Numbered from the stretch's first letter, positions 1 through 64,000 are shown. The stretch: 64,000 nucleotides of DNA from a virus (IMGVR_UViG_3300031853_000010:39162-103161), one strand, 5' to 3'. Numbers and translations: made by a program. Notes: generated from the letters alone by a model not told the origin.

Positions 1-1454
1 AAGTCAATTGACATATTCTCTACCTTATTTCCATTGAAAAAGTCTGCCGCACCATTGGTTGAAAGATTTTTAAACACAGTGCGGACGGCGGCGATATAGT
101 TTCCATCAGCAACGTCATTTGTATTTTCCTGATAGTTGTCTGTAAAATAATATGTAGGACTTTTATCACAAACACCAGTAAGAGTATAGTTTGAATAGGT
201 TGCATCGGAAACAGTAAAGCCTGTATCATTTATCTGTGTATAAAGAGGATGTGGAGTCTAAATAGAACCTGTCATGAAAGGAATAAATTCTACTTCTTCT
301 GTTTCAACATTCTCTATTGTAGAAACATTGTTATCAGTAATATTTACCAATCCGCCGCGATACCTACGGTTATAAATTATCATGCCTGGGAAGTATTCCC
401 CATTGTGATAGTTGCTTTGATATGAGCCATTTCTTATCACTGGTATAATAAAAAGAGTTGATTTATTGTAAATATTTTTCAAATATTTAAGATTATTCCA
501 ACAGGCTTCAAGATGAGCCACATAATCTTCATAAGTTGTAGGAAGTATAACTGAGTTCTTATAGAAGCCATCGTATTTAAGATAGGGTTTTAAGACTTCG
601 ACGTTTAATGGAATAACTATCGGCTGTATATCCATATATACTGTATACTGAGAAAGTAAAGCAAAAGCTGTCCAAAGGTAAAGCATATTCTCCCAAAGCT
701 AAGCTATCTCATCAAGCATTTCATCCATAAGTCTTCTGATAGGATTATCAGGATTGAATAAGTATGCAAGTATTGCCGCAAGAACTTGACCAATGACCCA
801 GAAATTGCGGTTTAAATCTTCTGCTTCAACCTCTCTTTCATATTCTGGCATAAGAAGACGAAGATATTTGTTAAATAAATGAGTAAATTGAAGATGTTCT
901 TTATTGTTCAAAACTCTTACTATTTTATCATTTTTACGAACTTCGCTGTAATTATCTGAGTCAATATTTTTCCACGGAACTACCCATTCGCCATTATTGA
1001 AACTATTTCCAGCATTAGCATTTAAAATATCACTAATGGTAAATTCAGTAGAGTCGATAGGCTATGTGCTATTGATACAGTTGTAATAAAGTTGTATAAG
1101 CTGATTAAAACTTTCATTCCAATGTGTCTGTCTATTCTCTGGATTGAGAACAAATAAACTATCTAAGAATGTATCCACAAGGTCTGCATTGTTATTAATA
1201 AACTCTGCTACACTCTATACACTTGCAGCAGGATTGCCATCACTTAAAAAGTCTAAATCTCTTATGCCATAGTGTTGAAGTCTTCCTTGTTCATTTTCAC
1301 TTTGGAGGAACTTAGTTAAGCCATCCCAGAATACGTCTTGGTGTTCTGCGAACTTCTTTAATGACACACCGCTGAAATTATCAATGGTAGTTCCTTCCTC
1401 ACCATTAATTAATTCCTTTATTACTTCGTTCATTTCAGTGTAATCTGATGCCAT
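1..1454 (-). CDS. Hypothetical (probably virion-associated) protein, TAG-recoded, runs off the left edge
   Basis: ATG at 1454 with GGAGGTG RBS. Track ORFs 1215-1469, 699-911 and 258-686 share one frame and are separated only by TAG (1215, 1062, 699, 258); no TAA/TGA down to base 1. Confidence 0.8.
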
Positions 1455-1477
1455 GTTTTCACCTCCCATAGTAAAAT

Positions 1478-1506
1478 GGCCGCCATCCGCTTTATGAATG
1501 GCGGCA
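1478..1506 (-). terminator. GC-rich hairpin after the endolysin
   Basis: GCCGCCAT...ATGGCGGC inverted repeat followed by a short T-run on the minus strand. Confidence 0.55.
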
Positions 1507-1513
1507 TAATGAA

Positions 1514-61000: not shown

Positions 61001-62836
61001 AGATTTTAATGCAGTATCAACCTTATTAAAATCCAAATCATCAAATTCAGAATCGGCTGTGCCCGCCACGTTAGTCTTTAACTCTGTAAATCTTGCGATA
61101 ATTGTCTTTAAAGATGTACCGATGTTCTCAGCAGATTCCTGTGTGGTTTCAATAACCTGAGTAAGGAAAGCGGCTGTATTCTCGAAACTCATACCAGCAG
61201 AGTTAGCGATTGAAGCAGTTCTCGCCATAGCCTGTGCGATACCGTCAACGTTAGCAGCAGCGTGAGCGGCAAGCTCTGAGTAAACGTCGGTAACGTGAGC
61301 ACCATTATCCATTTCCATACGGAAACCGCGGATAGCTGATGTCATTTCCTCGGTAGCTGTACTAAAGTCATTACCTGCCAATGTAGCAAGTTTCATGGTG
61401 TCGGTTGTCAATTCAAGTGCTTCATTAGTATCAAGACCTTGCTGATAGAACAAAGCAGATGCCTTAACGACGTCTTCTGTCTTTTGACCAAGTTCTGCCG
61501 CCATGGATGCGTATCTTCCATAAGAAGACCACATTCCTTGAACGCTGTTTGATGTAACCATCGCGATTGAAGCGAAGGCTTTATCAAGTTTCTTAACATC
61601 ATTATAAGTATCTCTAATCTGTTTCTTTAAAGTATTAATAATAGAAGTAACACTGAAAAACATGAGAAGTCTTGATTTCAACTAATCAAATGTTGATGAA
61701 GCTTCTTTCGCATTCTTCATATTTTCTCTTAGAAAATCTGAATTTCTGTTAAGTGCTTCACCTGCTTTTTTAGCCGAACCTGTAAGATTTTCATCAATGG
61801 TATTAAGTTTACGAGATGATTCCGCGAGGTCTTCTGCCGACCTTGCTGAAGAAGACATTGTAGAGCCACTCTTCTTTTCAATAGCCATCAATTCTCTAAG
61901 TGCTGATACAAGACCCTTTGTGGCTTCTTGGTTTACTTTCCAAGTATTACCACTTCTTTTACCTATCTCACTTAAAGAGGCTTCTGCTCGAGCTACCTGC
62001 TAATCAACTTCTGCTTGTCTGCCTGAAGCTTTATTAAGCTCATTCATTGAACCCAATACGCCATCTATGTAAGATAAAAATGCCGAACCATTTTTATTCA
62101 TATACTTTGTAAGGTCCATGTCCTTCATCATTTGCTTAATTCTTGACATAGCCTCTTCATAGCTATTTGCAGCAGAAAGGATTTCCTTTACCTATGCTGT
62201 AGTCTGGTCCATTCTCTCCTGAGAAGGAGCTTTACGGCCTTGCTTCCAAATATCTCTACCCTAAAAATCTGTTGCTTCTGTAGTATTTAAATTATTAACG
62301 GAAGCCACATTATTACTATAAGTAGACATAGATGCTTGATACTGTTCTCTCTTTGCTATCGCTTCATTATATAATTTTAATCTTTCTTTTAATTCTTCAT
62401 TTAATACTTTTTCAGCTTCAGCCTATTTGTCTTCTGCCTTTAAAATCCTATCAAGCCCATTGGTAATATTTGAAGTAGGTATGGCTTGTTCATAAGCCTT
62501 CTTTACTTTATTAGTAGCTTCTACTGTTTTTCTACTCCACTCGTCTACCTTTTCATTGATATTGTGTATACGTCTTTCAAAACTACCAAATTCTCCAAGA
62601 ACTTCATGAACTCGCTTTTTAAAGTTAGCAAGTTCTTTTTCATTTGTAAATCCTTCTTTACCTTCTTGCTGTAAATATTTATAAGACTCAGCAAGACTAT
62701 CGAGGTCTTTCTTTAATCTATCTGTGACGCCTTTTGATACACCCGCAGACTTCATTTCTGAAATTGCGTTTTTATACTTATTAACAAAACTTGAGACATC
62801 TAAGTCCAAGCTATAAGTTTCTTTGTAATCTGCCAT
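55013..62836 (-). CDS. Tail tape measure protein (TP901-like core), 2607 aa, ~40 TAG
   Basis: ESAENIGTSLKTIIAR, AGSRQQSRFIAMM core; TM segment near 59700; C-terminal GGLVDYTGPA.VDGT..PEAFL; all track pieces in one frame. Confidence 0.92.
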
Positions 62837-62851
62837 TCACTATTCACCTCT

Positions 62852-64000
62852 TTAAATCGTAAAATTAATTGTAATGCCCCTAAAGTAGATTTCTCCACCA
62901 TCTAAGACTCTACTATTTTTGATATACATGATATTCTTCTTTTTCATGCCAACATTACCATACTCAAACATTTCTTTTGTAGTTCCATCTGCATATTCCT
63001 TTGTGCCGATATTTTTTGGTTTTGCCTTCTAACGGTAAGCTGGAAAAGTGCCATTTAACTAAAATAATCTTTGACTATCATCCTATTTTTCTAATTGCTG
63101 TTTTACCTTATTGATGGCGGCGGCAATCAGGAAAGAGCTTGGAAAATAGTATTGACCAATTACATATATATCACTTTCAAGACCTTTATCAATTGAGGCA
63201 TCGCTTATACGTAAGAAGTTATTAATAGAGCCAAAAAAGCTCATTTCCATTTTCTTTCTTAAGTCTGGTATATCACCGACCTCTGTTAAATATACACCAT
63301 TGGCAAAGAGCCATCTATAATTTTTTACGTCATCTTCTTTAAAATACTTAAACATTTCTTTACGTCCTAAATGAACAGTTTCTTCATATAATCTTGTAGA
63401 ATTACTTGGTTTATAATTTTTAACCTAAAAACCCACTGTTGAATTTGCTATTCTGGCTACAACGTCATAATTCAACTGACCGCCGACACCAGCTCTGTCT
63501 CCACCAGTAACTTCGGTGTATATACCGTCTTTTGCTTTTTCAGAACCAATCTGTAAAGCATAAGCAGTGGCAACCTCACCAAGCAAACCCTTCATCTAAA
63601 CAGGACCATAAGCAGACATCGCATCAAGTGCTCTATCTCCTCTTTTGATTGTCTTATCAATTTTTTGGAAAAATGCTCTTGATAAATTTTGTATTTCTTT
63701 CGGTTCCATTTTTCTATCGATTACTCCTTCAATTTTTTGAGTAATGAAATCAAGGAATAATTGTTTAATTTGGACTCTATCACCATTTAAACCCTCAACC
63801 ATATCATCCTCATGGGTTTTAACGAAATAGGTTCTATTATATTTACGAAAGTCAACTCTTTCACCATTAACAGGTCTACCTTCTTCTTTTGCTTTTCTGA
63901 GTTCACTTCTTTGTCTTTTCTTTTCATCAATTCTTACTTGAACTACCGCATTAAATTTCCCGTCGCCTTCACGCCATTCTGAATTAACTTCAAGAACACC
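62852..64000 (-). CDS. Hypothetical protein with PD-(D/E)xK-like motifs, 5' end outside the window, at least 5 TAG
   Basis: KGLLGE...YDVV...GF*VKNY; open from 64000 to TAA at 62852 when TAG is read through. Confidence 0.7.

Follow-up and report, generated by a model that had tools for sequence, protein, structure and literature searches.

The stretch of DNA analysed here, hereafter the window, comprises 64,000 nucleotides and corresponds to bases 39162-103161 of the 103,161-bp IMG/VR virus contig IMGVR_UViG_3300031853_000010 (G000). The subject of the present report is the pentamer GCSGC, written as GCCGC or as its complement GCGGC, which is dispersed throughout this phage DNA. The contig is 63% complete by the CheckV estimate and has a GC content of 35%. 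Near-identical DNA is present in ruminant gut metagenomes from at least 14 studies, the bins that hold close relatives are labelled Ca. Fimenecus, Ruminococcus and Oscillospiraceae, and a search of a phage collection by DNA similarity found no near phage.

Three gene blocks make up the window (Table 1). The replication module of G000 is SPbeta-like and includes an ATP-dependent ligase, RNase H, NrdD/G, a two-subunit type II topoisomerase and PhoH, together with a Sak4-like AAA_24 ATPase, a DnaB-like helicase, a primase, a RecJ-like exonuclease, a YorL-type polymerase and a RuvC-like resolvase; a siphovirus tail module consists of tape measure, Dit and Tal. With standard-code gene calls, 17-35% of the DNA appears "intergenic". 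When TAG is read as glutamine (code 15), the coding fraction of G000 increases from 77% to 93%, and three relatives rise similarly; clade-wide, the range moves from 62-77% to 86-93%, with G000, its relatives G001, G002, G004 and G006, and contig C38 of bin G008 listed as TAG-recoded. A more distant relative, G007, apparently uses the standard code. All later gene models and shuffles were made under code 15, in which the tape measure is a protein of 2607 aa.

On the plus strand of the window there are 88 GCCGC and 57 GCGGC, as compared with 10.5 and 11.3 expected from composition, and the whole contig holds 155 and 94, respectively. GCSGC, a degenerate palindrome, reaches about 2400 copies per Mb and is grossly over-represented genome-wide. 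The longer word GTGCCGC occurs 17 times on the plus strand and four times on the minus strand (25092, 35386, 44346 and 44771), with 0.62 expected per strand, and GTGCCGCC is divided 12:1 between the strands of the window and 18:2 in the whole contig. A preliminary description of the window had counted about 45 GCCGC/GCGGC in the first 17 kb, where our recount gives 46, and at least 13 and at least four GTGCCGC on the two strands against less than one expected. Its thirteen plus-strand positions are right, except that 45952 is really 45950, and four more were added to them (5462, 20430, 23166 and 57754).

Table 1. The GCSGC word, gene blocks and selected genes in the 64,000-nt window
Feature	Position	Strand	Remarks
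Dispersed field of 145 GCSGC words	46-63125		About 2.3 per kb, coding and intergenic alike; Poisson-like spacing
Twelve GTGCCGCC copies, strongly polar sub-population of the core word	10836-58951	+	Starts 10836, 12580, 15011, 20430, 23166, 28781, 44624, 45950, 53824, 54265, 58299, 58944
Sole minus-strand GTGCCGCC copy in the window	44770-44777	-	
Leftward left block: endolysin, GH-like protein, fibre and leucine-rich repeat (LRR) proteins	1-11800	-	GCCGC:GCGGC on + strand 19:9
Rightward replication and nucleotide-metabolism block	11801-44900	+	GCCGC:GCGGC 44:32
AAA_24 (Sak4-like) recombination ATPase	27268-28233	+	
DnaB-like replicative helicase	30337-32040	+	Directly upstream of primase
DnaG/T7-type DNA primase	32053-33108	+	Candidate reader; N-terminal zinc ribbon, TOPRIM EGE motif
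RecJ-like 5'-3' single-strand exonuclease (YorK-like)	33109-34902	+	Possible end-processing component in the Chi-like alternative
YorL-type (PolIII-alpha-like) DNA polymerase	37428-41402	+	Single 1324-aa gene under TAG=Gln
RuvC-like Holliday junction resolvase	44093-44812	+	
Leftward tail genes	44901-64000	-	GCCGC:GCGGC 25:16
Tal	45226-51666	-	Tail block
Dit	51666-54890	-	Tail block
Tape measure	55013-62836	-	Tail block

Excess of GCSGC over shuffled controls

Synonymous-codon shuffles within genes, which preserve the protein sequence as well as each gene's codon usage, served as the control. In 300 shuffles of the window, the expected numbers were 30.0±4.1 GCCGC (maximum 44), 21.1±3.9 GCGGC (maximum 34) and 3.0±1.3 GTGCCGC. 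For the whole contig they were 53±5.5 GCCGC and 35±4.4 GCGGC, from which the observed counts depart by z-scores of 18.6 and 13.5. Codon usage was rejected as the cause, because the excess survives this treatment. Under maximal-order Markov models, CGCC, GCCG and CCGC with their complements were the top 4-mers (z 10-12.7) and GCCGC/GCGGC the top 5-mers; Markov models alone were set aside for the codon shuffles, since most of the signal is then absorbed by the 4-mers. The enrichment first noticed in the preliminary description was thus kept against codon-shuffled and Markov controls.

The excess is 2-6-fold in all three reading frames and in both orientations, and it extends to frames that offer no synonymous GCWGC alternative, such as GGC-GGC and xxG-CCG-Cxx. 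GCS serves as the first codon in 63% of Ala-Ala pairs, as compared with 23% of overall alanine usage, and GGC-GGC makes up one third of the Gly-Gly pairs; the earlier statement that the word is encoded through rare codons in different frames was confirmed for all three. Intergenic DNA, with a GC content of 30%, carries the word at a density equal to that of coding DNA.

Avoidance of other words contributes to this picture. G000 avoids short palindromes to an extreme degree, its 103 kb containing GATC and CTAG twice each, CCGG once, GGCC 17 times and GTAC 40 times, where composition leads one to expect 108-342 copies, and GCWGC is avoided as well. In a constrained shuffle, 21 avoided words were never allowed to rise above their observed total, and the expectation for G000 became 90±5 GCCGC and 64±4 GCGGC as against the observed 155 and 94, which means that avoidance accounts for a quarter to a third of the excess. 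Restriction-site avoidance as the cause of the whole excess was therefore rejected, the excess persisting when the avoided words are held at their observed level. When the four close genomes described below were pooled, GCSGC was the most enriched 5-mer (2.33-fold), followed only by words that overlap it, and GCWGC was depleted to 0.5-0.8 of expectation, so that the centre of GCNGC is shifted from W to S. Two further origins were tried and rejected, namely triplet-repeat expansion, as CCGCCGC, GCGGCGG and longer GCC runs occur less often than their sub-words would predict, and a repair bias of the Vsr type, as the neighbours GTSGC/GCSAC stand at 0.8-1.06 of expectation.

Relatives were found via the DNA polymerase and taken from IMG/VR and GTDB. 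The close genomes, G001 (186 kb, complete), G002 (147 kb) and the 184-kb contig C38 of bin G008 (G008p), match G000 at about 72% identity in alignments covering roughly half of it, and all three show the same excess over codon shuffles (z 11-21). The set of avoided palindromes differs among relatives, and G002 keeps 454 GATC and 233 CTAG without avoidance, yet has the same GCSGC excess. At greater distance, the excess is threefold in G004 and G006, TAG-recoded genomes whose polymerases are 58-64% identical to that of G000, and twofold in G007, with a polymerase 50% identical. In total, the excess is present in seven relatives that were put through codon shuffling. The four close genomes, whose aligned parts share only about 72% identity, hardly differ in site density. 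Conservation at orthologous positions amounts to 28-40% for the sites as compared with 22-30% for all 5-mers, and losses and gains of sites pass through many different substitutions. Together, constant density and low site conservation indicate that the density is maintained while individual sites turn over.

Bin G008 also provides a candidate host. In its non-phage contigs (491 kb sampled, 36% GC, standard code), GCCGC, GCGGC, GCCGCC and GGCGGC occur at 0.88-1.08 of the codon-shuffled expectation, non-phage contigs totalling 2.3 Mb contain about nine copies of GTGCCGCC, matching the level of the control word, and neither GCGGC nor GGCGGC shows a sense-strand skew beyond codon usage. At similar GC, the word reaches about 2.4-2.5 per kb in the phage and about 0.3 (0.32) per kb in the host, a difference of about sevenfold. 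The identity of the host is based on binning and on shared avoidance only: bin G008 and its phage contig both avoid GATC, CTAG and GGCC, and this speaks for a genuine pairing of phage and host. Such shared palindrome avoidance is, in itself, a possible host-matching signature. A host genome-wide bias as the source of the excess was rejected, as the phage excess does not equal the bias of a candidate host that stands at expectation.

One hypothesis that these results address is that the excess is a neutral by-product of biased repair or mutation, of restriction avoidance converting GCWGC into GCSGC and of codon-pair effects, with no selected function. GCsGC is known as the "alternative HIP" (highly iterated palindrome) of Cyanothece PCC 7822, where cognate methylases are present and the excess has been proposed as an epiphenomenon of methyl-directed repair (Elhai 2015, PMC4390886). 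The phage word resembles the HIPs (HIP1, GCGATCGC; alternative HIP, GCsGC) in its genome-wide excess through coding DNA at about 1000-2500 copies per Mb, and it is the same degenerate word as the latter; the depletion of GCWGC, the shift of the GCNGC centre and the portion of the excess covered by avoidance also agree with a neutral origin. On the other hand, HIPs occur in cellular genomes with cognate methylases and without reported strand polarity, whereas the present word is found in a phage and has a word-specific strand bias. A profile search for C5 and N4/N6 methylases and Vsr (PF00145, PF01555, PF03852) gave no match in G000, G001 (complete), G002, G003 and G005, so that the methylation-linked, HIP1-like reading of the preliminary description is not supported, there being no cognate methylase or Vsr in five clade genomes. 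The candidate host, from which any host repair bias would come, is at expectation, the excess is equal in frames without a GCWGC alternative and in G002 without GATC/CTAG avoidance, and the GTSGC/GCSAC neighbours are undepleted. A purely neutral origin is therefore distinctly unlikely.

The same word is recognised exactly by CglI and NgoAVII (GCCGC), by TauI (GCSGC) and by a GCDGC methylase (PMC5737866, PMC8936443). A restriction target, however, should be avoided, whereas here GCSGC is enriched and it is GCWGC that is avoided. The site-orientation logic of CglI/NgoAVII was rejected as a candidate, as the enzyme cuts all orientations and its target would not be enriched. Since the excess survives both synonymous and avoidance-keeping shuffles while the candidate host stays at expectation, it very probably represents a selected DNA-level signal, as the preliminary description had proposed, in the form of a word private to this lineage of large rumen phages.

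Shape and strand polarity of the word

The core of the word comprises 5-6 bases, [T/C]GCCGC[C], which reads GGCGGC on the other strand. Apart from T/C at -1 and C at +6, the flanks of GCCGC are nearly uninformative, with little difference between strands, and G is missing at -1 because GGCC is avoided. GTGCCGCC, earlier taken for a distinct extended motif, is enriched about sixfold over shuffles as compared with fourfold for GCCGCC; given the nearly uninformative flanks, it is a sub-population of the core and not a separate longer motif, and GCCGCCCT (10:0) and GCCGCCTG (10:0) behave in the same way. A longer polar motif was sought in the flank analysis and none emerged.

As a degenerate palindrome enriched in both orientations, GCSGC could be read symmetrically on duplex DNA, either by a genome-coating or compaction factor, as a self-mark sparing phage DNA during host DNA degradation, or as a site of the phage type II topoisomerase. 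Consistent with this are the roughly sevenfold density over the host, the lineage-private nature of the trait, and the type II topoisomerase and several helix-turn-helix proteins that the lineage encodes. A word of 5-6 bp with uninformative flanks is, however, too short for most specific double-strand binders, the sites are not clustered, no candidate protein is tied to the word, and symmetric reading fails to predict a strand bias of 2-3:1. We consider a duplex-DNA reader unlikely.

The strand bias became clear in the four close genomes oriented alike. On the polymerase-sense strand, the GCCGC:GCGGC ratio is 251:143 in rightward (+) genes and 604:292 in leftward (-) genes, and GCCGC is the strongest transcription-independent polar word at k=4, 5 and 6. 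At four-fold degenerate sites, the residual of strand-linked skew is at most 0.03, which makes the bias specific to the GCCGC word; a general replication-linked composition skew was rejected on this ground. Broken down by region, the pooled counts of GCCGC and GCGGC are 537:183 for the left block, 200:116 for the replication block and 66:31 for Tal/Dit, and the ratio inverts to 97:134 in the head and terminase genes, from the tape-measure gene to the terminase; beginning with the tape-measure gene, the relatives show either no polarity or an inverted one. The terminase and portal genes of G001 map to 164-167.5 kb, next to a sigma-factor gene, and just beyond them follows a rightward early region with about 20 sigma-70-like promoters.

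The preliminary description had stated a 2:1 excess of GCCGC on the plus strand in leftward and rightward gene blocks alike. Its direction holds in each block of the window (Table 1), but none of the blocks is significant alone, and significance was reached only on pooling close relatives. The accompanying claim that polarity is independent of transcription stands for the four closest genomes, where it varies by region, and does not extend further: G007 shows no polarity, and the bias of G004 and G006 goes with transcription, GCGGC outnumbering GCCGC on the sense strand of genes in either orientation. The excess is thus a conserved phenomenon and the polarity is real in this clade, although the latter is probably secondary, since it is lost or follows transcription in distant relatives. 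In having an orientation that is set by strand rather than by transcription and that switches at defined map positions, the word is comparable with the FtsK orienting polar sequences (KOPS, GGGNAGGG) and with the SpoIIIE recognition sequences (SRS, GAGAAGGG). These are 8-mers with a skew above 85% that act with FtsK-family translocases on chromosomes, whereas here the word has 5-6 nt and a skew of 65-75%.

A short, G-rich, strand-biased word far above chance in a phage recalls Chi. According to a Chi-like explanation, the G-rich form 5'-GGCGGC-3' (including GGCGGCAC) would attenuate a processive helicase-nuclease entering at DNA ends, thereby protecting injected or concatemeric phage DNA or promoting its recombination, the nuclease being host AddAB or a phage UvrD-like helicase with the RecJ-like exonuclease. 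The top rank of GCCGC among transcription-independent polar words, without general skew at four-fold sites, is in keeping with such a role. The strand splits of GTGCCGCC in the four genomes (18:2, 13:1, 12:4 and 14:3) resemble those in the Chi-rich lambdoid phages LLS and MD8, in which Chi is divided 20:3 and 32:0 (PMC12315714). Owing to the regional inversion near terminase and portal, the G-rich form points outward towards both presumed, packaging-defined genome ends, which is the active Chi geometry. Moreover, the core holds GCGG, common to the "Chi" words AGCGG of B. subtilis and GAAGCGG of S. aureus (bioRxiv 10.1101/2021.07.08.451572).

Further evidence for Chi-type selection comes from the SPbeta-like B. 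subtilis phage Goe13 (MT601274.1). In this phage, the host Chi AGCGG is split 55:2 between the polymerase-sense strand and the other strand (27:0 in rightward and 17:2 in leftward genes), and the rare orientation is depleted against codon shuffles (2 as compared with 23±4.6); this phage family accordingly does feel Chi-type selection. Strong polarity in Goe13 extends to G-rich words that are similar to the SpoIIIE recognition sequence (AGGGGA, GAAGGG).

In their own hosts, the known Chi words are both abundant and skewed. AGCGG, GAAGCGG and GCGCGTG are each the host's own word, whereas the candidate host here has neither excess nor skew, with GTGCCGCC at control level, and a de novo search for a host Chi in 491 kb of its bin returned codon-driven words only. 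Both orientations are strongly enriched, the minor one with a z-score of 13.5, the bias of the core is 2-3:1, and enrichment persists in G007, G004 and G006 though a transcription-independent polarity does not. The phage also has recombination genes of its own, unlike the Rec-less Chi-rich lambdoid phages, and the genome ends and packaging direction that enter the argument are presumptive. Hence the Chi-like proposal in the preliminary description is weakened in its host-type form by a host that lacks the enrichment, and we regard Chi-like function as doubtful overall.

A variant would make GCSGC a phage-private, Chi-like "self" word that the host does not use and that is read on single-stranded DNA by a phage end-processing machine, e.g., the UvrD-like helicase together with the RecJ-like exonuclease. 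The chromosome of the host, poor in the motif (about 0.3 per kb), would be degraded for nucleotides, and the motif-rich phage DNA (about 2.4 per kb), with its G-rich form facing the genome ends, would be spared or channelled into recombination-dependent replication. This variant is a long shot.

The phage primase as candidate reader

GCSGC is probably read by a phage-encoded machine and not by a host one. The reader should be encoded by the phage lineage, recognise 5-6 nt, act over the whole genome and on both strands, and be able to prefer one strand. The uninformative flanks speak for a short motif, like that of a primase or an AddAB-type site. Directly downstream of the DnaB-like helicase, the window encodes a primase that fits this description; it matches phrog_47 DNA primase (E 5e-46), and its translation contains a C-H-x-H...C-x3-C-x-C zinc ribbon and the TOPRIM EGE motif. 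Zinc-ribbon primases read template words of 3-5 nt, the established example being T7 gp4, which uses the pentamers 5'-GGGTC, TGGTC and GTGTC with the core GTC. By analogy, our best explanation, to which we assign a probability of roughly 35%, is that the phage zinc-ribbon primase is the reader and that the word is its template initiation site.

Under this proposal, the primase would work with the adjoining helicase and start primers at the GCSGC word. A GC-only site would arise by chance about once per 5 kb per strand at 35% GC, too sparse for Okazaki-fragment priming, for which reason selection would write the word into every frame and into the spacers, and more copies would be expected on the strand more often used as lagging-strand template. 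The four close genomes carry a site every 560-710 bp on one strand and every 1090-1290 bp on the other, so that the word occurs on both strands at a spacing (560-1290 bp) comparable to Okazaki fragments. In the T7 genome (V01146), the primase pentamers exceed codon shuffles on both strands (161 as compared with 119±8, and 159 as compared with 129±7). The likeness to T7 gp4 thus lies in a short single-strand word, dispersed over both strands, with a zinc-ribbon/TOPRIM phage primase as its candidate reader; the T7 excess, however, is 1.25-1.35-fold at 48% GC, whereas here a GC-only word is raised about threefold over shuffles and 5-8-fold over composition at 35% GC, and the link to the primase is by analogy.

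Several observations weigh against the primase. The spacing of sites is Poisson-like (coefficient of variation about 1) rather than regular, and nothing points to selection against long stretches devoid of sites. The polarity would need an origin in an odd place or mainly unidirectional replication, and a Chi-like model predicts the same geometry equally well: a G-rich word running 5'-3' towards the ends is at once the active Chi orientation and the lagging-strand template of outward forks, so that geometry cannot separate the two models. GCSGC is not in excess in Goe13, whose replication module is homologous, so that the model requires a shift in primase specificity within the family. The T7 effect is modest, and several unrelated T7 5-mers are equally or more enriched. 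In addition, the depletion of GCWGC falls outside the primase model and needs a separate cause, restriction avoidance, and the assignment of the primase is itself based on elimination and analogy.

The literature searched contained no description of a GCSGC excess in phages. What is new here includes the recognition of GCCGC as a unique transcription-independent polar word, the map position of its polarity inversion and the loss of polarity in distant relatives; shuffles under the correct code and with constrained avoidance, the analysis by frame, the codon-shuffle test of the host and the T7 and SPbeta controls are new as well. Selected short words at high density, such as Chi, KOPS, uptake sequences and HIP1, have each revealed a DNA machine and the way in which DNA is told apart. 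The present word is the property of a virus rather than of its likely host, is kept at the cost of rare codons and persists through site turnover. If the primase is its reader, priming can shape the codon choice of a whole phage genome, and the template specificity of an uncharacterised primase family is obtained for free; if a nuclease or translocase is the reader, the word would be a virus-private self-mark. In practice, the word offers a simple signature by which this widespread rumen phage lineage can be recognised in metagenomes.

Additional features of the phage genomes

Several other features of these genomes deserve mention. Among the fibre and lysis genes of the left block, a BspA-type leucine-rich repeat protein of 1116 aa (window 7598-10948, minus strand; PF13306, E 7e-97) is probably a receptor-binding or adhesion protein. 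Homing-endonuclease genes of the GIY-YIG type, with NUMOD domains, are inserted inside the replication block (window 35737-36447, plus strand) and, at 23354-24373 of G000 (minus strand), next to ThyX. Upstream of the window, the region 14684-19448 of G000 contains a gene for an adenylosuccinate-synthetase-like protein of 391 aa, whose neighbours encode a polynucleotide-kinase/HD-domain protein and an RNA ligase. The gene was checked as a possible PurZ, and comparison with solved structures gave distant PurA entries as the sole matches; its product may be a PurZ-like enzyme or belong to an RNA-repair module. The complete genome G001 carries 46 tRNA genes, a tmRNA and two tRNAs with the amber-reading CUA anticodon. 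The roughly 20 promoters of its early region are near-consensus (TTGACA-17-TATAAT), and many of them adjoin a GGCCCGGGCC(GCC) element.

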